Virus record (IMG/VR): IMGVR_UViG_3300017978_000236
Length of the DNA: 64,000 bases
Source of the DNA: an uncultured virus (IMG/VR IMGVR_UViG_3300017978_000236)
Taxonomy: Duplodnaviria; Heunggongvirae; Uroviricota; Caudoviricetes; Crassvirales
Direction: 5' to 3' (one strand)
Part shown: positions 7,462 to 30,325 of the stretch, piece by piece
Position numbering within the stretch: position 1 is the stretch's first letter
Layout of the letters: each line of letters opens with the position of its first letter
Position numbers and translations under genes: made by a program
The notes under the pieces: model-generated
What the model saw: only the letters and a program-made list of their open reading frames with translations
What the model was told of the DNA's origin: nothing
Databases searched by the model: none

Positions 7462-8829
7462 ATGGCTCAAGCTGTAAATTTTACAAGTAATGCTATCACT
7501 GGTGGAGCTCAATTAACTCCAGCTCCAGTTAAAGCTACATTATCTACTAACTATGTAGGTACATTTGACTTTTTGTCACATGAATTACCAGACCTTTACG
7601 AAAAAGAATTCGAAAGATTTGGAAATCGTTCTATCGCATCTTTCTTACGTTTAGTAGGTGCTGAAATGCCTTCTACTTCTGATTTGATAAAATGGAGTGA
7701 GCAAGGTCGTCTTCACGTATTTGGAACTGCTACTAAAGCAACTTCATCTACTATTACTTTTGGTGCTGCTCATAACGTACGTTTAAACCAAACTGTAGTT
7801 ATTAGTGATACTTCTAACGGAGTTACTATTAAAGCTTTAGTTACTGCTATTGATGCTGACGGTGTAACAATTACTGTTGCTCCTTATAGCGCTGCTAACT
7901 TAGCTGCTTTAAGTACTGTTTCTGGTGCTTTGAAAGTATTTGTTTACGGTTCTGAATTCAAAAAAGGAACAGGCGGAATGGCTGGTTCTTTGGAAGCTCA
8001 ATCTGACATCTTAGAAACTAACCCAATTATCATCAAAGATAAGTATGAGGTTAACGGTTCTGATATGGCTCAAGTTGGTTGGATTCAAGTTACAACTGAA
8101 AATGGTGCTGACGGATACTTATGGTATTTGAAATCTGAGCATGAAACTCGTTTACGTTTCGAAGATTACTTAGAAATGTCAATGGTTGAAGGTGAGCCTG
8201 CTGCTGCTGGTTCTGCTGTAGCTGCTGCTGGTTACAAAGGTACTAAAGGTTTGTTCTACGAAATCGCTAATAGAGGTAACGTTGGAACAGGTGCTATCAC
8301 TGATAGAACTGACTTAGAAAACATTATCAAAGTGTTGGATAAAGAAGGTGCTATTCAAGAAAACGTATTGTTTGTTAACAGAAAAACATCTTTCGAGATT
8401 GACACTGTATTAGCTGCTCAAAATAACTTCGGTTCAAGTGGAGCTTCTTACGGATTGTTTGACAACGAACAAGACATGGCTTTGAATCTTGGTTTTAAAG
8501 GATTTAACTTAGGTTATGATTTCTACAAAACTGACTGGAAATATTTGAACGATGCTACAACTAGAGGTTCTATCTCTGACATCGATGGTGTATTAGTTCC
8601 TGCTGGAACATTGACTGTTTATGACCAAGTTCTTGGTAAAAATGCTAAACGTCCATTCTTACACACTCGTTACAGAAAATCTGAAACAGAAGATAGAAAA
8701 TACAAATCTTGGATTGTAGGATCTGCTGGAGGAGCTTCAAACTCTGACATCGATGCTATGTCTGTTAACTTCTTATCTGAAAGAGCTTTAGTTGTTTTAG
8801 GTGCTAACAACTTTATGTTGTTGAAATAG
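7462..8829 (+). CDS. Major capsid protein (crAss-like HK97 fold)
   Basis: 455 aa, WSEQGRLH motif, strongly biased codons (GCT, TTC, AAC, CGT), followed by a terminator. Confidence 0.88.
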   Translation: MAQAVNFTSNAITGGAQLTPAPVKATLSTNYVGTFDFLSHELPDLYEKEFERFGNRSIASFLRLVGAEMPSTSDLIKWSEQGRLHVFGTATKATSSTITFGAAHNVRLNQTVVISDTSNGVTIKALVTAIDADGVTITVAPYSAANLAALSTVSGALKVFVYGSEFKKGTGGMAGSLEAQSDILETNPIIIKDKYEVNGSDMAQVGWIQVTTENGADGYLWYLKSEHETRLRFEDYLEMSMVEGEPAAAGSAVAAAGYKGTKGLFYEIANRGNVGTGAITDRTDLENIIKVLDKEGAIQENVLFVNRKTSFEIDTVLAAQNNFGSSGASYGLFDNEQDMALNLGFKGFNLGYDFYKTDWKYLNDATTRGSISDIDGVLVPAGTLTVYDQVLGKNAKRPFLHTRYRKSETEDRKYKSWIVGSAGGASNSDIDAMSVNFLSERALVVLGANNFMLLK

Positions 8830-8857: not shown

Positions 8858-8884
8858 AAGGGTAGACTTCGGTTTACCCTTTTT
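8858..8884 (+). terminator. Intrinsic terminator after the capsid gene
   Basis: AAGGGTAGAC-TTCG-GTTTACCCTT followed by a T run. Confidence 0.85.
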
Positions 8885-8934: not shown

Positions 8935-8973
8935 AAACCACTAATTAGTTAATTCTTTTTAGTGGTTTTTTTT
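8935..8973 (+). terminator. Second intrinsic terminator insulating the tRNA operon
   Basis: AAACCACTAA...TTAGTGGTTT followed by a long T run. Confidence 0.7.
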
Positions 8974-9000
8974 GTTATATAAAAATAAGTTGTATATTTG
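8971..9000 (+). promoter_or_regulatory. Promoter of the leader/tRNA operon
   Basis: TTTG at 8971-8974 (-33) and TATATTTG at 8993-9000 (-7); ATG follows 4 nt later, which suggests a leaderless mRNA. Confidence 0.75.
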
Positions 9001-9004
9001 CACA

Positions 9005-9076
9005 ATGAAAAATACAAAAAACAATAGTCTACGTCACCCGCAACAAGATAATCTCTTGGGTGGAATTGGTGTGTAG
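9005..9076 (+). CDS. Attenuator leader peptide, 23 aa (MKNTKNNSLRHPQQDNLLGGIGV)
   Basis: ATG 9005 to TAG 9074-9076; consecutive CTA CGT CAC CCG CAA CAA at 9029-9046 match the downstream tRNA anticodons. Confidence 0.8.
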   Translation: MKNTKNNSLRHPQQDNLLGGIGV

Positions 9077-9131
9077 TATTGTTATAAAAATATATTTGAA
9101 CCAAAGCCATCCATATCGGGTGGCTTTTTTT
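9035..9131 (+). promoter_or_regulatory. Transcription attenuator with mutually exclusive 1:2, 2:3 and 3:4 hairpins
   Basis: 1:2 is CACCC/GGGTG plus AAGA/TCTT; 2:3 is TGGGTGG-AA-TTGGT (9057-9070) with ACCAA-AG-CCATCCA (9100-9113); 3:4 is the terminator. Confidence 0.75.
9103..9131 (+). terminator. Conditional (attenuator) terminator just before the first tRNA
   Basis: AAAGCCATCC-ATATC-GGGTGGCTTT, ending in a 7-T run. Confidence 0.85.
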
Positions 9132-9135
9132 ATTT

Positions 9136-9208
9136 CGCGTAGTGACAAAATTGGTTACGTGCCCGCCTTGGAAGCGGGAGACTGTAGGTTCGAGTCCTGC
9201 CTATGCGA
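9136..9208 (+). tRNA. tRNA-Pro(TGG)
   Basis: Acceptor CGCGTAG/CTATGCG; anticodon arm CCCGC-CTTGGAA-GCGGG; T arm GTAGG-TTCGAGT-CCTGC. Confidence 0.9.
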
Positions 9209-9213
9209 CAAAA

Positions 9214-9285
9214 TACAGTATGATGCAATGGTTAGCATACGAGATTTTGACTCTCGCTATCTAGGTTCGAGTCCTGGTACTGTAA
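9214..9285 (+). tRNA. tRNA-Gln(TTG)
   Basis: Acceptor TACAGTA/TACTGTA; anticodon arm CGAGA-TTTTGAC-TCTCG; TTCGA T loop. Confidence 0.9.
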
Positions 9286-9290
9286 CAAAT

Positions 9291-9364
9291 GGTGTTATTG
9301 CGCTTAACGGCAAGGCGGTTGGACTGTGAATCCAATTATATGAGTTCGAATCTCATATAACACC
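9291..9364 (+). tRNA. tRNA-His(GTG)
   Basis: G-1:C73 identity pair; acceptor GTGTTAT/ATAACAC; anticodon arm TTGGA-CTGTGAA-TCCAA. Confidence 0.9.
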
Positions 9365-9367
9365 CAA

Positions 9368-9442
9368 TTTAGTATAGTTCAATGGATAGAACAACAAGCT
9401 ACGAACTTGTAAATGGGAGTTCGAGTCTCTCTACTAAAACCA
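9368..9442 (+). tRNA. tRNA-Arg(ACG)
   Basis: Acceptor TTTAGTA/TACTAAA with encoded CCA; anticodon arm ACAAG-CTACGAA-CTTGT. Confidence 0.9.
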
Positions 9443-9444
9443 AT

Positions 9445-9526
9445 ACCGAAATGACGTAAAAACGAATTGGCAGAGTATCCAGTCTTAGAAACTGGGGTTT
9501 TATGGGTTCGAGTCCCATTTTCGGTA
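9445..9526 (+). tRNA. tRNA-Leu(TAG), atypical (short variable region, enlarged D region)
   Basis: Acceptor ACCGAAA/TTTCGGT; anticodon arm CCAGT-CTTAGAA-ACTGG; T arm ATGGG-TTCGAGT-CCCAT. Confidence 0.8.
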
Positions 9527-11998: not shown

Positions 11999-14900
11999 AT
12001 GGAGTTAAAAAAGACTTTTGTAGGTGGGTTAATGAACAAAGATTACGATGTTCGATTAATACCAGAGGGAGAGTATATTGATGCTGAGAATATCATAGTA
12101 TCAAACTCAGAAGGTTCTAGTTTAGGTCTTGTTCAAAAATCAAATGGATTAGATAAATTAACTAATTTAACTTTACCACTTAACGCTGTTACTATAGGAA
12201 GTATAACAGACGAGGGTAACGAATGTATTTACTGGTTTGTTACTTCAACTGCTGGTAATTTTGTATACGAGTATAATATATTAGATAATGAATCTTTATC
12301 TATAATCTTATCAGACACAAGATCTGGTTCTGCTAACGTATTAAACTTCAATTCTAAGTATAAAATAACTGGGGCTAATGTAATATATAATTCGTTTAAC
12401 AAGGAAAAACTTCTTGTATGGACGGACGACTTAAACCCTATACGCTGTATAAACGTAAATAGAGCCAAATCCTGGGCTGTAAATGGTTTTGCAACACAAG
12501 ATATCAGTTTATACAAAAGAGCTCCGTTTAGAGCTCCTAAATGTACTCCTACTCAGTTTGGTGATGGTACTGAAAATAATATAAAAGAAAGGTTTTTATC
12601 TTTTGGATATAGATATAGATATTTAGATGGAGAGTACAGTGCTACTTCTGCATTTAGTAATCCTCAATTTTATCCTTCTGATTTCTCATTTAATTTTTCT
12701 ACTCAAGAAAATAATGGGATGGTCAATTCATTTAACGCTATAAACGTTGGTTTTAATACTGGTGACAAAAACGTAACTGATGTACAGTTGTTGTTTAAAG
12801 AAAGTAATAGCGGAACGATATATGTTATTGAGAATTTAAACAAAGAAAAAGAAAAGTACGGAAATAATGCCGACAAAACTTTTTTATTTTCTAATAATAA
12901 AATATACTCTATACTTCCAGAGGATGAAGTAAATAGATTGTATGATAATATACCAGTTGTTGCAAAGGCTCAAGAATTTATAGGTAACAGACTTATGTTT
13001 GGTAACTATACTGAAGGTAGAGATCTTGTAGATATATCTGGTCAAAAAATAAATGTAGATTTTAAAACATCTTTTGTTGCTAAAGATTTAAAAGAAAATT
13101 TATTGAATACTACTGTTTCTAGTAGTGAAACTACGAATAATGTTTTAAACATACAGTTAGCACCGTCTGATATTGAAAAAGGTAAAATACTATCTATATC
13201 ATTTAGAGCTAGTAGTGATACCCCTTTCTTCGGTAACTACATGTGTGATTTATCTTTTTATTTAGAGAAAACATATTCTAGTGCTTTTGAACTTTCTCAA
13301 TCTGAAGAGTTTATTACTTTTTTAACAACTGTAGCAAGTAATAACTTTAGAAACGCTGATTTAAATAATACAGAACCTAATAACGATATAGAATCTTATC
13401 CTGATAAGTATAAGCCATTTGTATTGTTAACCGCTACTTCAAGTAATGTATTAAGTTTAAAAATACCATACATAAGACATAAAATAGATAGTACTCCTAA
13501 TGATACAAATGATTCTTTATTTACTTATCAAAACGAATACTATCACATAAAAGTAGATAGTGTAAATGTTTTTTCTTCAGATGATAATGTTTATGCTAGT
13601 TGTAAATCAATTAGAAGTTATGAAACTGGTATCGTATATTTAGACGAAGAGGGAAGATATTCTACTGTATTAACCAGCAAGGATAACACTATATTTATAC
13701 CAATTAAAAATAGCGTTACTAGTAATAACTTAAAATTAGAAATAAAAAGTAAAGCTCCTGCTTGGGCTAATAGATATAAAATATTTGTAAAAGATAGTAA
13801 ATTAAATTATCATACTATATATTCTGTTATCGCTTATGAAGACCAAGGGTTTATTTGGTTGAAGTTAGAAGGTCAGGATAAACAAAAAGTAAAAGAAGGA
13901 GACTATTTAATAGTAAAGAAAAATGTAAACGGATTTACCGATAACGTTGAAAAACTTCAAATTTTAGACTACGCTACAAGCGCAAGAGATTTTATTAAAG
14001 ATAATAAAAACCCTGCTGGTACAGATATAATAGAACCTTCTGGAGTATATATAAAAGTAAAATCATCATCTAATTTAACAATAGATGGAGCTGAGAAAAA
14101 CTTTTACGAGTTCAAGAAAGAGGCTATGGATACTGGTGACAACTTCTTTGTTTTTGCTGGAGGAGCTGCTGGCTTCTCTGTAAACAAAGGAACTTTAAGT
14201 CTTCCAGTTGTTGAGGACATTCCAATACCTCCTGGCAGTAGAATAGAAATAGAAATAAAAAACGAGAGAAGTGGTTTAACTACTGTAGAGTTTAAGAAAG
14301 AATATATATCTAGTGATAGTTATAACGACTTTCAAAGTTGGTTTCAAACAGAAGGAGATGGATTAGGTGATTTTAAAACCTATGAATTTGTAAGAGGATT
14401 TACAAAACCTTATGATACTGGTACTGGTACATTTGGAACAAAATTACCTAATAGAGGAGAGACAATAACGTTGAATCCTAATGGGTATTTATATTTAAAA
14501 GTAAAAAACCAATTGAATGGTAATGGGCAAAATCGTTCATTCTTAAATGCAAAAATAACTATAACAACTGGGTATAGTTTATTGATATTTGAAACTGATT
14601 CTATTGATAATACATCAGAAGTTTTTTACGAAACTCAAGATACTTATCTTATACAAAATGGTCTTCATATGTCTAATAAAGACGAATACCCTACTGATGT
14701 TGATCAAACTTCAAATGTACCAGCTATTATTAATTTGAATTGGTTTAATTGCTTTACTCAAGGTAATGGAGCTGAGAGTTACGTTATTAAAGATGTTTTT
14801 AATAAAAACTTTTTATCTACTAATTCAAGACCAAATGCTGTACAATTAGACGGATATAAACAAGTAAGGAACATAGCTTCTATAACTTATAGTGGACCTT

Positions 14901-17900
14901 TTGATAAAACAACTAATTATAATTCATTGAATGAATTTAACTTATCAAGAGCAAACTATAAAGACTTAGATGACAAATACGGAAGTATTCAAAAAATACA
15001 TTCTAGAGATACTGATTTAATAGTATTCCAAGAAGATAAAGTACACAGAATACTTTATAATAAAAATGTTTTATTTGATGCTGTAGGTGGTGGTAGTGTA
15101 TCTTCTATTGAAGATGTTCTTGGTCAAGAAATTCCTTTTGCTGGAGAATGGGGTATTAGTAGAAACCCAGAGAGTTTTTCATATTATGCAAACTCAATAT
15201 ATTTTACAGATACAAACAAAGGAGCTGTTTTAAGATTAGGTGGAGATGGATTAGAGCCTATATCTAGATACAAGATGCGCGATTGGTTTAAAGACAATTT
15301 AAAAGAATATAAAAATAACTTTAAGTATGGTGGGTTTGATCCTATCCATGATAATTATATTTTATCATTAGCTACAGATAAAGTTGACTATACAGCTTCT
15401 CTTATTTGTGGTCAAGCAATACAATGGTTGAACATACCATCTAATAGTTCTTATACTTATAATATAGAATTAGGAAATAACATAGGCAATCATCTTGTTA
15501 ACTATACAATTCCAGGAGGAAGTATTTTTGATTTTGAAATGGTTACAAATGGAGTTACTACTTACCTTGAAAATGCAACTGGTACTGGAAACTTCACTGT
15601 TCCTAAAACCACTACTGTATCAAGTGGTGTTTTAACTATATACAATAGAGAGAATACAATGGGATCGTTGTCTCTTAAAAATGTATGTGTTGGAAATCCT
15701 GAGTTAGAAGTAATTACTTTAGTTGTTGGAGATAGTTTAGACACTAATAAATCTATGACTAATAAATACGAATGGACAAATTCAGCTACGGCTACTAGTG
15801 GAAGTTCTTCTTTATTAGATGTATTTGCTGTTGGTGATGTAACTAGATTTAATTCTGATACAGGTGAAGAGGGTGAGAATGAAATACCTTATAATAACTC
15901 AGTAATAAAAGTAACTTCTACTAAAGCTACTGGACAATTTACGTCTTGTAATAGAATAGGATATGTTATTACTGCTAGTGATTTAACACCTCAACAAATA
16001 TTAGATTCTGCTACATATCCTGCAATCACAAATTCTGGAGATGATAACTATATTCAATTTACATTCAATAGAACTGGATCTCAAAAACTTTATTTAGTTT
16101 GGGATTATATAGATACTGAAAATTGTGATGTAGAAGCTACTCCTATAAGATTGTGTTTTAACGAATCAGATTATGCTTTAGCTTGTGAATGCGATGTTGT
16201 TCCAGTTAACTGTGTTGTTTCTGATTGGGGACCTTGGTCTACTTGTGTAGGAGGTACTCAAAGCAGAACACGTACTGTAATCACACCATCAGTTGGCGGA
16301 GGAACAGCTTGTCCTTCTTTAACAGAAAGCAGAAGTTGTATACCACCAGTAGACTGTGTTGTGTCTGAATGGAGTCAATGGTCAGATTGTGTAGATGGTT
16401 TCCAAACTAGAAGTAGAACTGTAATCACTCCAGCATCAGGTGGAGGCGCAGCTTGTCCTAGTTTAACTGAAACTAGAACTTGTTCAAGTATAGCAATAAC
16501 TAATGTAATATGTAACGATTCAGATGGAGGAAATACAGTTACTAAAAGATTTAGAATTACAATAGGTAATGCTCCTGTTAATTATACGATTAATCAAGGA
16601 ACAGTTGTTAATACAGCTGGTCTACAATATTCTATTGTTTCAACTCCTGGAGATGCTTACATACAAGTTGCATTTAAACCTGCTTTGACATTAGGAAACG
16701 AATTCTCTATTGAGTTACTACTCAAGAATTCTTCAGGTAATGTTGTTGGTACTAATGTTACTCAAACACTATACGGTGACTACCAAAGCTACTTACCTTC
16801 TTGTGTACCAGTAAACTGTGAAGTATCTGAATGGAGTGCTTGGTCTGCATGTTCAGATGGATCTTCTACAAGAACAAGAACCGTTGTTACTCAACCTAAC
16901 TGGTTAGGTACTGCTTGTCCTACACTTAGTGAAACAAGATCTTGTACTAATTGCGTAGTTTCAGAATGGTCAGCTTGGTCAGACTGTGTTGACGGAACTA
17001 AAACCAGGACTAGAACAGTAATTACCCCTGCATCAGGTGGAGGAACCGAGTGTCCTGTATTAACTGAAACAATAACTTGTTCTGGTATAGACATAACAGA
17101 TACTATATGCAATACCGATGGTGGTAGTACAATTACAAAAAGATTTAGAATAGCTTTAAATAACGCTCCTAGTACTTATACTATTGAATCAGCACCTGGA
17201 ACAGTTATAAATCCAGCTGGACTTGAATACTCTATAGTATCAACACCTGGAGATTGTTACATACAAGTTGCTTTTAGACCTGCCGTAACTTATGGAAATG
17301 AGTTTTCTATTCAATTATTGTTAAAGAACTCGTTAGGAAATACAGTTGGAATTAGCGGATCAGAAACTATGTATGGTAATTACCAAAGTTTCTTACCATC
17401 TTGTTTTCCAGTAGATTGTGTTGTATCTAACTGGAGTGCATGGTCTAATTGTGACGGAGGTACTCAGAGTAGAACTAGAACAGTTATAACACAACCAAAC
17501 TCACTTGGAGCTGCTTGTCCTGAACTTACAGAGACAAGAAATTGCCCAGTAGACTGCGTTGTTTCAGCTTGGTCAGCTTGGTCTACTTGCGATGCGGGTA
17601 CACAGACTAGAACTAGAACTGTTGTAACACCTGCTTTAAATGGTGGAGCTGCTTGTCCAGTGTTATCAGAAACTAGAGATTGCGCTATGGATTGCGTAGT
17701 ATCAGCTTGGTCTGATTGGAGTACTTGTTCAGAAGGTGTTCAAACTAGAACTAGAACAGTTGTAACTCCGTCTATGAATGGTGGGGCTGCTTGTCCTGTA
17801 CTTTCTGAAATGAGAGGATGTTCAAGTATAAATTTAGGATCTGTAACTTGTAATACTCAAGAAAACAATACTGTTACAAAACGATTTGCAATATCAATAG

Positions 17901-19555
17901 CAAACCAACCAACAACTTATACTATATCAAGTAGAAATGTACAAAATTATGCTGGACTACAGTACTCTATAGTATCTACTCCTGGAAATGCTTACTTAGA
18001 AGTAACATTTAGACCTTCTGTTACTTACGGAAATGAATTCTCTATTGAGCTTTTATTAAACAATACATCTGGATTTATAGTTGGAGCTAGTGGTATTCAA
18101 ACAGTATATGGAGAATATCAAAGCTATTTACCAGCTTGTTATCCAATTAACTGTGTAGTTTCTGATTGGAGTGATTGGTCTACATGTACAAATGGAACAC
18201 AAAGCAGAACTAGAACAATAATAACTCAGCCTAACTCATTAGGTACTGCGTGCCCTACTTTAACAGAAACAAGAGATTGTCCTGTTGATTGTGTCGTATC
18301 AGCTTGGTCTGATTGGTCGTCTTGTAATGGTGGTACTAAAACCAGAACCAGAACAGTGATTACACCAGCGATGAACGGAGGAGTTGCGTGTCCTGTATTG
18401 TCAGAGACTGTTGATTGTCCTGTAGACTGCGTTGTGTCTGAATGGTCTGCGTGGTCTGCATGTTCAGATGGTTTAACAACTCGTACTCGTACAGTTGTGA
18501 CACCTGCCTTGAATGGCGGAGCATCTTGCCCTGTATTATCTGAAACTGTAGGTTGTTCAACAATAAGCTTAACAAGTACAATATGTAATACTGACGGAGG
18601 TAATACGGTTACAAAAAGATTTAGAATAGCTTTATCTAATGAACCTTCAAACTATACTATAACAACTGGAACAGTTAATAACTACGCTGGTCTATCATAT
18701 TCTATAGTTGCTACTCCAGGTGATTCTTACTTACAAGTTGCATTTAATCCTAGTGTTACTTACGGAAACGAGTTATCTATTCAATTAGTATTGAAAAACT
18801 CTTCAGGGGTAACAGTTGGTACTAGTAGTCTTCAAACGGTATATGGTACTTACCAAAGTTACTTACCATCATGCTTCCCTGTTGATTGCGTAGTGTCTAA
18901 TTGGAGTGCTTGGTCTACATGTGTTGATGGAAGTCAAACTAGAACTCGTACAGTTATAACTCAACCTCAAAATGGTGGAGCATCTTGCCCTGTATTATCA
19001 GAGACACAAAGTTGTGCTATGCCAGTTGACTGTCAAGTTTCAGCGTGGAGCGAATGGTCAGCATGTTCTGATGGATTCCAAAGTAGAACAAGAACAGTTG
19101 TTACCCCTGCGTCAGGAGGAGGAGCTACTTGTCCATCACTAATAGAGTATCAAGAATGTGTGATGCCAGTTGATTGTCAAGTTTCAGCGTGGTCTGATTG
19201 GAGCACTTGTTCTGGAGGAAGTCAAACGAGAACCCGTACGGTTGTAGTACCTGCATCAGGCGGAGGTGCTGCTTGTCCAGTATTATCTGAAACTCAGAGT
19301 TGTACAGAAACACCAATATGTACTAGTTACATTGTTGGATATAGTTCTTCTTCAGAAAGTGTAGCATGTTCTAACTACGGAATGGGATCAACTATATCAG
19401 TAGGTATAAACGCTTTGGATTGGGCAGATGCTACTTTCTTACACAGAAGTTGTGGAATATTAGCTGCTAGAGGTGCTGGATGGTACTCTGCTGATGGATT
19501 AAGTAGATACTGGAATGGATCTGCATTTACATCATCAAATGTTTGTGTTTACTAG
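11999..19555 (+). CDS. Tail nozzle/stabilization protein (N-terminal part) with a C-terminal extension of 13 TSP1-like repeats and 4 copies of a ~105-aa spacer domain
   Basis: N-terminal GLMNKDYDVRLIPEGEYIDAENI, GNRLMFGNY and GEWGISRNPESF motifs of crAss-like stabilization proteins; repeats from 16.2 kb. Confidence 0.8.
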   Translation: MELKKTFVGGLMNKDYDVRLIPEGEYIDAENIIVSNSEGSSLGLVQKSNGLDKLTNLTLPLNAVTIGSITDEGNECIYWFVTSTAGNFVYEYNILDNESLSIILSDTRSGSANVLNFNSKYKITGANVIYNSFNKEKLLVWTDDLNPIRCINVNRAKSWAVNGFATQDISLYKRAPFRAPKCTPTQFGDGTENNIKERFLSFGYRYRYLDGEYSATSAFSNPQFYPSDFSFNFSTQENNGMVNSFNAINVGFNTGDKNVTDVQLLFKESNSGTIYVIENLNKEKEKYGNNADKTFLFSNNKIYSILPEDEVNRLYDNIPVVAKAQEFIGNRLMFGNYTEGRDLVDISGQKINVDFKTSFVAKDLKENLLNTTVSSSETTNNVLNIQLAPSDIEKGKILSISFRASSDTPFFGNYMCDLSFYLEKTYSSAFELSQSEEFITFLTTVASNNFRNADLNNTEPNNDIESYPDKYKPFVLLTATSSNVLSLKIPYIRHKIDSTPNDTNDSLFTYQNEYYHIKVDSVNVFSSDDNVYASCKSIRSYETGIVYLDEEGRYSTVLTSKDNTIFIPIKNSVTSNNLKLEIKSKAPAWANRYKIFVKDSKLNYHTIYSVIAYEDQGFIWLKLEGQDKQKVKEGDYLIVKKNVNGFTDNVEKLQILDYATSARDFIKDNKNPAGTDIIEPSGVYIKVKSSSNLTIDGAEKNFYEFKKEAMDTGDNFFVFAGGAAGFSVNKGTLSLPVVEDIPIPPGSRIEIEIKNERSGLTTVEFKKEYISSDSYNDFQSWFQTEGDGLGDFKTYEFVRGFTKPYDTGTGTFGTKLPNRGETITLNPNGYLYLKVKNQLNGNGQNRSFLNAKITITTGYSLLIFETDSIDNTSEVFYETQDTYLIQNGLHMSNKDEYPTDVDQTSNVPAIINLNWFNCFTQGNGAESYVIKDVFNKNFLSTNSRPNAVQLDGYKQVRNIASITYSGPFDKTTNYNSLNEFNLSRANYKDLDDKYGSIQKIHSRDTDLIVFQEDKVHRILYNKNVLFDAVGGGSVSSIEDVLGQEIPFAGEWGISRNPESFSYYANSIYFTDTNKGAVLRLGGDGLEPISRYKMRDWFKDNLKEYKNNFKYGGFDPIHDNYILSLATDKVDYTASLICGQAIQWLNIPSNSSYTYNIELGNNIGNHLVNYTIPGGSIFDFEMVTNGVTTYLENATGTGNFTVPKTTTVSSGVLTIYNRENTMGSLSLKNVCVGNPELEVITLVVGDSLDTNKSMTNKYEWTNSATATSGSSSLLDVFAVGDVTRFNSDTGEEGENEIPYNNSVIKVTSTKATGQFTSCNRIGYVITASDLTPQQILDSATYPAITNSGDDNYIQFTFNRTGSQKLYLVWDYIDTENCDVEATPIRLCFNESDYALACECDVVPVNCVVSDWGPWSTCVGGTQSRTRTVITPSVGGGTACPSLTESRSCIPPVDCVVSEWSQWSDCVDGFQTRSRTVITPASGGGAACPSLTETRTCSSIAITNVICNDSDGGNTVTKRFRITIGNAPVNYTINQGTVVNTAGLQYSIVSTPGDAYIQVAFKPALTLGNEFSIELLLKNSSGNVVGTNVTQTLYGDYQSYLPSCVPVNCEVSEWSAWSACSDGSSTRTRTVVTQPNWLGTACPTLSETRSCTNCVVSEWSAWSDCVDGTKTRTRTVITPASGGGTECPVLTETITCSGIDITDTICNTDGGSTITKRFRIALNNAPSTYTIESAPGTVINPAGLEYSIVSTPGDCYIQVAFRPAVTYGNEFSIQLLLKNSLGNTVGISGSETMYGNYQSFLPSCFPVDCVVSNWSAWSNCDGGTQSRTRTVITQPNSLGAACPELTETRNCPVDCVVSAWSAWSTCDAGTQTRTRTVVTPALNGGAACPVLSETRDCAMDCVVSAWSDWSTCSEGVQTRTRTVVTPSMNGGAACPVLSEMRGCSSINLGSVTCNTQENNTVTKRFAISIANQPTTYTISSRNVQNYAGLQYSIVSTPGNAYLEVTFRPSVTYGNEFSIELLLNNTSGFIVGASGIQTVYGEYQSYLPACYPINCVVSDWSDWSTCTNGTQSRTRTIITQPNSLGTACPTLTETRDCPVDCVVSAWSDWSSCNGGTKTRTRTVITPAMNGGVACPVLSETVDCPVDCVVSEWSAWSACSDGLTTRTRTVVTPALNGGASCPVLSETVGCSTISLTSTICNTDGGNTVTKRFRIALSNEPSNYTITTGTVNNYAGLSYSIVATPGDSYLQVAFNPSVTYGNELSIQLVLKNSSGVTVGTSSLQTVYGTYQSYLPSCFPVDCVVSNWSAWSTCVDGSQTRTRTVITQPQNGGASCPVLSETQSCAMPVDCQVSAWSEWSACSDGFQSRTRTVVTPASGGGATCPSLIEYQECVMPVDCQVSAWSDWSTCSGGSQTRTRTVVVPASGGGAACPVLSETQSCTETPICTSYIVGYSSSSESVACSNYGMGSTISVGINALDWADATFLHRSCGILAARGAGWYSADGLSRYWNGSAFTSSNVCVY
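16202..19303 (+). repeat. Intragenic array of thrombospondin type-1-like repeats (2-S-2-S-3-S-3-S-3; S = spacer domain)
   Basis: Consensus PVDCVVSxWSxWSxCxxGxQTRTRTVxTPxxxGGxACPxLxETxxC counted 13 times. Confidence 0.9.
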
Positions 19556-19584
19556 AATAAATATATAATTAACAATAAATAAAT

Positions 19585-20091
19585 ATGGCTACAAGCTCAT
19601 TATATTACATAGATTCCAGCAGTTTTAATACTGCTGTTTCTGTGTATACAGATCAAGAATTAACGATCAAAGCTCCTGATGGATATTATTCATTTAATGG
19701 ATTATACAGAAAACAAATTTTTGGTAAATTACAAGACGTTGCTAACTGTAATGGTGGAGCTGTACCTGTAGACTGTGTTGTGTCTGAATGGTCAGAATGG
19801 TCTATTTGTTCTTCTGGATCTAAAACAAGAACTAGAACGGTGATAACACCAGCCTCTGGAGGTGGAACAGCTTGTCCTGCTCTTACAGAAACTGTTACAT
19901 GTTCTTCTGAGGAAGCTTGTACTAGTTACACGCATATAGCTAGTAGAGATGCTTTAATAACATACACAGCTTGTAACGGAACACCTAAGTCAATAAGCAC
20001 GTCTAGATTTAGTAGTTATACTTTCTGTGCAATAACTGGAAGTGTAGAAGGTGGAGCTGGTCAATGGAGTACTAACGGATTCTGTAGTTAA
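19585..20091 (+). CDS. Small Cys-rich tail accessory protein with one TSP1-like repeat
   Basis: KAPDGYYS N-domain, then PVDCVVSEWSEWSICSSGSKTRTRTV...C at 19765-19902. Confidence 0.75.
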   Translation: MATSSLYYIDSSSFNTAVSVYTDQELTIKAPDGYYSFNGLYRKQIFGKLQDVANCNGGAVPVDCVVSEWSEWSICSSGSKTRTRTVITPASGGGTACPALTETVTCSSEEACTSYTHIASRDALITYTACNGTPKSISTSRFSSYTFCAITGSVEGGAGQWSTNGFCS

Positions 20092-29956: not shown

Positions 29957-30251
29957 ATTTTAGCACCCTCTTTCTTATCCCGCTTATGGATTTTACACCA
30001 TAAGAATTGCGGTAAGAGTAGGGTCACGTAGTCAATAAGCTACCTCTACATTAAATATCACTATTTAATAGTCACTGTTCTGACTTATTAACTACTTGCT
30101 GAGAACTCATTTGTGTTGTGGAGGTATTAAAGTCGTAAAACATACTGAGCTTTCTCAAGGCTCCAACACATCTACCATTACCGATAGTATCTTCGATAGT
30201 TTCTCAAGGTACAAGTTATGCACACTATCAGGTATTCAATGTTTAACCTTG

Positions 30252-30325
30252 TGGACCAAGTAGGACTCGAACCTACGACCTTGACATTATGAGTGTCCTG
30301 CTCTAACCAACTGAGCTATAAGTCC
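30252..30325 (-). tRNA. tRNA with CAT anticodon, probably Ile2 (lysidine type); elongator Met not excluded
   Basis: GGACTTATAGCTCAGTTGGTTAGAGC...CTCATAA...GTAGGTTCGAGTCCTAC TTGGTCCA. Confidence 0.85.

Follow-up and report, generated by a model that had tools for sequence, protein, structure and literature searches.

A predicted codon-sensing attenuator upstream of a mobile five-tRNA module in an uncultured phage

The window, that is, the whole stretch of 64,000 nucleotides analyzed here (nearly all of a 65,218-base virus record), carries a mobile module of five tRNA genes preceded by a predicted codon-sensing attenuator; the match between this tRNA set and the TrmD class of the host family is seen in the sequence, and from these features we infer a link to host defence. 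Here it is proposed, with a probability of about 0.6, that five tRNAs for the C row of the codon table, all without G37, lie behind a stalling attenuator that would be turned on when the host tRNAs with G36 and G37 fail, most likely through a host defence or toxin. The original prediction concerned the tRNA genes, and its interpretation is partly supported but incomplete, as the leader, promoter and terminator upstream had been overlooked. The capsid protein (7462-8829) matched 85 phage records, all below 60% identity, with Flavobacterium (68), Cellulophaga (15) and Maribacter (1) as host genera; because the matches are phages of these genera, the host is probably a member of the Flavobacteriaceae.

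The array consists of five tRNA genes in tandem, placed between the capsid gene and its downstream neighbor in the structural module:

9136..9209, + strand: tRNA-Pro(UGG), A37 at 9172 (ARAGORN, Rfam)
9214..9286, + strand: tRNA-Gln(UUG), A37 at 9250 (ARAGORN, Rfam)
9291..9365, + strand: tRNA-His(GUG), encoded G-1, A37 at 9329 (ARAGORN, as 9292-9365; Rfam)
9368..9442, + strand: tRNA-Arg(ACG), A37 at 9404 (ARAGORN, Rfam)
9445..9526, + strand: tRNA-Leu(UAG), A37 at 9489, short variable region and enlarged D loop

As had been claimed, all five combine G36 with A37, one for each amino acid of the CNN row, and the anticodon loops described before were reproduced from the sequence and with ARAGORN. 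The Rfam tRNA model fits all five, the Leu gene scoring 27.6 bits, slightly below the 29-bit cut-off. The ARAGORN pairing of tRNA-Leu is wrong, and the sequence gives a 7-pair acceptor stem (9445-9451/9519-9525), A9526 as the discriminator, a D loop that is enlarged and, in place of the long variable arm, a variable region of 6 bases, whereas the host gene is long-armed; the gene reads as real, though odd. A tRNA-Leu(UAG) with a D loop about 7 bases larger, two bases before the anticodon stem and a variable region of 6-7 bases is shared by the window and the loci L001, L127, L148, L307, L325, L334 and L537, and this form is mis-called or missed by tRNA finders. Short-armed Leu tRNAs also occur in C1 mycobacteriophages according to the accessible part of PMC10264068, so the form in the window is not unique. 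Among tRNAs neighboring an Arg(ACG) anchor at other viral loci, 84 of 412 have G36, and against this background five out of five G36 would arise by chance with p ~0.0004; five out of five A37 is much less special (~0.03, as the product of the per-type background rates). With five tRNAs between structural genes, the array is not of the long type, in which most isotypes lie beside RNA repair genes.

Upstream of tRNA-Pro, the following elements were found:

8858..8881, + strand: terminator-like hairpin closing the major capsid gene, which would insulate the module from upstream transcription
8972..9000, + strand: Bacteroidota-type promoter motif (TTG 8972-8974, TAnnTTTG 8993-9000)
9005..9076, + strand: leader reading frame, 23 codons and a stop
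9029..9046, + strand: sensor run of six C-starting codons (codons 9-14: Leu, Arg, His, Pro, Gln, Gln)
9057..9070, + strand: predicted antiterminator arm (9057-9063 pairing with 9107-9113, and 9066-9070 with 9100-9104)
9103..9135, + strand: intrinsic-terminator-like hairpin, 10 pairs and a T tract, ending at the first base of tRNA-Pro

The sequence TAnnTTTG is taken here to be the Bacteroidota promoter consensus. Because the motif ends four bases before the leader start, the message is probably leaderless, and the exact motif lies 3-5 bases 5' of the start codon in 17 of 37 loci. The leader frame is kept across aligned relatives, with one 3-base indel. The sensor run includes all five amino acids served by the array, while the longest run of C-starting codons elsewhere in the phage is three (14,034 codons in 25 long genes).

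Folding predictions indicate that this region is very probably a ribosome-stalling transcription attenuator. The free leader folds into the terminator (-34.9 kcal/mol, z -3.3). When a ribosome footprint is masked over the run, 9057-9070 pairs with the 5' arm of the terminator (-18.9 kcal/mol in the nascent chain), whereas with the ribosome modelled at the stop codon the terminator alone forms. For a stall at the His codon, the best fold of the full-length chain is the antiterminator; for a stall at the last Gln codon it is not, and the switch would therefore depend partly on folding order. A protector (1:2) hairpin from the run to the arm is present in the best fold of the window, yet the window stands at 111/200 in the shuffle comparison, and such a hairpin beats shuffles in only 2 of 36 loci. 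No Rfam leader or riboswitch family reached threshold in the window or in seven loci, the best leader match being Phe_leader (28 bits against a threshold of 55), which covers the terminator only.

The sensor was examined comparatively in 37 Pro-first loci having a frame that ends 50-85 bases upstream and a terminator, with L344 added by hand; L172, which has no run and no switch, was dropped, leaving 36 loci. The switch codon was defined as the one where the antiterminator is lost, read from folding alone. C-starting codons account for 208/324 in the nine codons before the switch and 33/355 after it, and C occurs at codon positions 1, 2 and 3 in 208, 78 and 46 of the 324 codons, which places the signal in frame, because C is concentrated at position 1. 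An origin of the C-richness as a pairing artefact was ruled out by codon position and by pairing of the run that is no better than in shuffles. The non-CNN codons of the leaders match the extra tRNAs of their operons in 27 cases (permutation mean 5.9, maximum 16 in 5000), a count that overstates independence because the Phe, Trp, Cys and Thr cases are probably one lineage. By amino acid, matches with and without the tRNA were 5/6 and 1/30 for Glu, and 4/4 and 0/32 for Phe, and UUA or UUG is found in the leader of 4/4 operons with tRNA-Leu(UAA) and 2/32 without. The misses were Lys (0/2) and Ile, Asn, Ala and Val (0/1 each); the extra tRNAs of Panino behind these misses are part of a following block with its own matching leader. 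Leader arms pair with their own terminator arms at -12.0 kcal/mol, compared with -6.9 kcal/mol for the arms of other loci, a test with some circularity, since the arm had itself been placed by this fold; the pairing is better than in own shuffles in 26/36.

The identity of position 37 in the host family was read gene by gene in a Dokdonia bin (G001) and in Flavivirga amylovorans (G003). Among the matches listed, G37 is found in 8/8 and 9/9 housekeeping G36 genes, respectively, and in 0/29 and 0/29 of the other tRNA genes, one Ser loop being mis-registered. The expectation that host isoacceptors carry G37 is thus borne out, A37 not being native in these genomes, and the anticodon loops of the array differ from those of the host-family isoacceptors. 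A pattern search covered 35 genomes of the family of G003, with the matches listed coming from 32 genomes and read by eye; among them, housekeeping G37 was found in at least 32 genomes for Arg(ACG), at least 31 for Gln and at least 19 for His. A37 in His or Arg genes was seen, among the matches listed, only in three clustered accessory arrays, and certain extra rows resemble chance matches. Pro and long-armed Leu(UAG) of Flavobacteriaceae have G37 among the matches listed. TrmD methylates the G36-G37 class of tRNAs. Judged by these anticodon loops, the G36-G37 class in the sampled Flavobacteriaceae coincides exactly with the C row of the codon table, and the array covers the TrmD class of the host family, because the housekeeping counterparts have G37 and other tRNA classes do not (gene by gene in two genomes). 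The array tRNAs themselves, with A37 in 5/5, fall outside the TrmD substrate class.

A37 had also been proposed as the marker of a bypass. In support, the 21 of 36 leader operons that are G36-only as chained (one of them, L211, containing an unassigned call) include 17 that are wholly non-G37, three that are mixed and one (L327) that is all G37, and 91 of the 98 G36 genes in these operons are non-G37; over all leader operons, 22/36 are wholly non-G37. However, A37 is also found in 132 of 258 distinct G36 tRNAs from 203 other viral and metagenomic loci, where it may be native to some of the hosts, and four leader operons (L216, L317, L327 and L358) have G37 in every G36 tRNA seen. One sibling family has His with U37, and the common feature is thus the absence of G rather than the presence of A. 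The loops therefore read as A37 being enriched in the module, and neither peculiar to it nor required by it. Other phage tRNAs often depart in the opposite way, to G37 (Phe 29/55, Leu(UAA) 14/34). Long accessory tRNA arrays in Flavobacteriaceae and Chitinophagaceae genomes (L338-L349) adjoin genes for RtcB, a release-factor homologue, RlaP, Band 7 and RNase H-like proteins; in these arrays A37 is present in 22/23 G36 tRNAs, and Phe and Leu(UAA) often have G37.

The leader and array recur together in 36 distinct operons, including those of the cultured phages phi19:1, Calle_1 and Panino (and phi38:1); these operons share ancestry and are not independent origins. The pattern scans left position 37 free, and the patterns used bias the sample toward the C-row block. 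In phage phi19:1 the tRNA set is identical and uniformly A37, leader and terminator are both present, and tRNA-Pro is unannotated; Panino, Calle_1 and phi38:1 have the block plus Glu and Leu(UAA). In phi38:1, the hypothetical protein annotated as gp070 (L537 668-850) is this leader frame, begun at a start farther upstream. Of 553 clusters with enough upstream DNA, 407 remained after collapsing at 90% identity, 28 of them being Pro(UGG)-first cassettes covering at least four of the five amino acids. A leader with at least five C-starting codons in eight precedes 23/28 of these cassettes and 28/379 of the other clusters, and such a leader together with a T tract precedes 22/28 and 10/379, seven of those 10 being likewise Pro-first; a T tract is present in 25/28. 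Because the flanking genes vary widely between loci, and the array is present in only 1 of the 68 capsid-gene relatives that extend 800 bases downstream, the five-tRNA operon is seen here as a mobile module. Among further scans, one of genomes for the tRNA-Pro type of the window gave no match, a second gave 12 loci, chiefly long accessory arrays but also one cassette (L344, on a phage-like contig in a Bacteroidota bin), and two of viruses returned mostly loci already known.

Departures from the common arrangement were also found. The leader start has been lost in L296. In three close siblings (L101, L119 and L136) the promoter motif and all five tRNAs remain, but ~75 bases 5' of tRNA-Pro the leader gives way to an unrelated, structured element that ends with a terminator; this element has no leader frame and no Rfam match, and would be a second way of gating the array. 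Further tRNA blocks in L082 (Panino), L354, L327 and L177 are each preceded by a short frame in which the amino acids of that block are abundant, together with a T tract, the leader-bearing blocks being Ala/Lys/Ile/Gly (Panino, L354), Asp/Asn/Phe (L327) and Cys/His/Leu/Arg. A tRNA-Glu, outside the G36-G37 class, has been added in 6/36 operons.

In the proposed mechanism, the first step is visible as the promoter motif, the leader with all five codon types consecutively and the terminator directly before tRNA-Pro. Folding predicts that a ribosome stalled in the run would free 9057-9070 to pair with the 5' arm of the terminator, allowing read-through, and that a ribosome past the run would cover 9057-9070, letting the terminator form. 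The tRNAs then made would cover the G36-G37 class of the host family with an A37 that cannot accept the TrmD methyl, and host synthetases would charge them, restoring decoding. The trigger, the weakest step, would be loss of the G36-G37 class during infection. A37 (U37 in some His genes) may be a later escape change in a module that first worked by dosage, and the operons L148, L202 and L294, with both G37 and non-G37 tRNAs, fit an arms race.

A refill-on-demand module is well supported and is the simplest reading: the leader would gauge how C-starting codons are decoded, and slow decoding would admit transcription into the array. That the C-row class was chosen and G37 lost suggests a failure striking the G36-G37 tRNAs jointly, and a class-directed host attack as its trigger has roughly even chances, a defence aimed at tRNAs with m1G37 being plausible. 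The other leader-gated blocks, the added tRNA-Glu and the leaderless siblings stand against a class-directed attack; since other blocks have their own leaders, the sensor is no proof of a CNN-specific attack. The array may instead be a general refill on demand, in which infection or starvation depletes many tRNAs, several leader-gated blocks respond, the C-row block is the one retained here and A37 only spares the wait for the host methylase. This agrees with the leaders before other tRNA blocks, with mixed operons carrying Glu, Thr, Phe, Trp, Cys and Tyr, and with the frequency of A37 in phage tRNAs and bacterial accessory arrays; it is nonetheless rather unlikely, given the G36-only content of 21/36 leader operons (as chained, a share inflated by the block-derived patterns) and the low use of C-starting codons by the phage, since a general shortage gives no reason to retain the C-row block so often.

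A second alternative, improbable in our judgement, takes the loss of m1G37 itself as the trigger (TrmD inhibited, or SAM or magnesium short), with A37 tRNAs as the bypass. The array set corresponds to the host-family TrmD class and nearly all G36 genes of G36-only operons are non-G37 (91/98), and upon m1G37 loss in E. coli, ribosomes stall at these codons and the leuL and ilvL attenuators open, as reported in the accessible part of PMC8384417. Excerpts of PMC8643618 describe A37-bearing Arg tRNAs recoded to CCG that arose in trmD mutants; these E. coli results also favor the main reading, whereas the poor charging by E. coli ProRS of tRNA-Pro unmethylated at G37, described there too, counts against it. 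Against the second alternative, versions with G37 throughout behind strong leaders (L327, L317) would serve no purpose, pre-existing methyl marks should outlive one lytic cycle, and comparison of the phage proteins with Pfam (62) and PHROGs (64) recognised no SAM lyase or TrmD-like gene. A phage-made cause (SAM lyase, tRNA nuclease or methylase mimic) was rejected on the same searches, a weak result because most small proteins are without any match.

The all-G37 modules also qualify the earlier claim that the set bypasses an attack on G36-G37 or m1G37 tRNAs: it gains from the contrast with the host genes, whereas L216, L317, L327 and L358 would be no help against TrmD loss. Because extra copies would offset the destruction or blocking of tRNAs and not the loss of TrmD, the former is favored in the proposed reading, a class-wide failure of host G36-G37 tRNAs. 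Tentatively, a Bacteroidota immune effector may disable all m1G37-bearing tRNAs as one class, with phages trading a sensor and refill module whose tRNAs are invisible to it; no effector with G36-G37 specificity was found in the literature searched or in this phage.

Constitutive expression or leaky termination for codon supply, with the leader as a structural by-product, is very improbable: leaderless siblings exist and contigs from two RNA-labelled libraries, possibly DNA, span the terminator, but the in-frame C enrichment, the cargo-matched leaders, the switch geometry and the low use of C-starting codons argue against it. Codon compensation was ruled out by that low use, with C-starting codons making up 9.8% of 16,267 codons in the phage and 37/454 in the capsid gene. 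Each of 20 RNA runs contained small shares of the stretch, none of them half, and the contigs of four runs are scattered pieces of relatives.

Leader-peptide attenuators of amino-acid operons also include trpL, hisL and thrL. Similarly to the leuL and ilvL attenuators of E. coli, the window has, as a prediction from sequence, a short leader, a run of sensing codons, mutually exclusive antiterminator and terminator, and multivalent sensing. Unlike amino-acid operon attenuators, the predicted one here would control tRNA genes and not biosynthetic enzymes, occurs in phages, is apparently leaderless, would sense five tRNAs united by positions 36-37 and has no Rfam leader family at threshold. Phage tRNAs with anti-defence roles include, in the available text of the respective papers, tRNA-Tyr against retron-Eco7 (PMC11555353), tRNA-Thr against P2-OLD (PMC12445682) and tRNA-Lys against PARIS. 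Like the array, these differ from the host tRNA in the anticodon arm or are over-supplied (PMC11555353, PMC12445682, PMC11464382, PMC10264068); however, they involve one tRNA type per named effector, with a strong promoter for Tyr, compared with a five-tRNA class and predicted conditional expression in the window. The effectors described in the accessible parts of the literature act on other tRNAs: bacterial Schlafen on Lys and others (PMC13056530), P2-OLD on Thr and A37-bearing arms (PMC12445682) and retron-Eco7 on Tyr (PMC11555353).

Bacterial long tRNA arrays (the trn operon, L-arrays) hold spare tRNAs that are silent until translational stress, according to excerpts of PMC8421152 and PMC10272220; in the window such conditional silence is only predicted. 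The array also resembles the long arrays of Bacteroidota genomes in having A37 at G36 tRNAs, but those are long and lie beside RtcB/RlaP, with a TrcR repressor in Anabaena in the text available, whereas the window has a five-gene module with a leader. In the literature searched, in which subscription journals were thinly covered, neither a leader-peptide attenuator controlling tRNA genes nor phage tRNAs avoiding m1G37 were found. G37, A37 and TrmD are not mentioned in the main text of PMC10264068 or in PMC8421152, A37 tRNA-Pro is not addressed in the available portions of the preprint 10.1101/2022.05.14.491930 or the review PMC13191261, and the only tRNA genes mentioned in the accessible part of the phi38:1 transcriptome paper (PMC5335546) are those of the host.

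It has long been asked why phages carry tRNAs, and a leader that spells the codons of its own operon would tell which tRNA failures a phage expects. The leader is a possible damage reporter, and the question is testable in cultured phage-host pairs, the carriers being the Cellulophaga phages phi19:1, phi38:1 and Calle_1 and the Maribacter phage Panino. A class-wide trigger would suggest a defence guided by an essential tRNA methylation, and if the class-wide effector exists, the leader reporter and the A37 and G37 versions would form a ready screen for it. Natural tRNA sets without G37 would also test TrmD bypass at the tRNA level.

Other features of this phage include a second tRNA site, at 30251-30325 (- strand), with a tRNA of CAU anticodon alone among the middle genes, called Met(CAU), for which Met or Ile2 is possible. 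The tail region encodes a protein of 2518 residues that, together with the next gene (11999-20091), has many cysteine- and tryptophan-rich repeats, which we take to resemble thrombospondin type 1 repeats, presumably unusual for a phage. The phage also encodes a GroEL-like chaperonin and two GroES-like proteins (51579-53410 and 777-1358), the call at 777-1358 being a PHROGs match and the remaining ones made by eye. In L002, the nearest array-free relative (85% capsid identity), the array site 3' of the capsid gene has an HNH-like endonuclease frame, recognised by eye.
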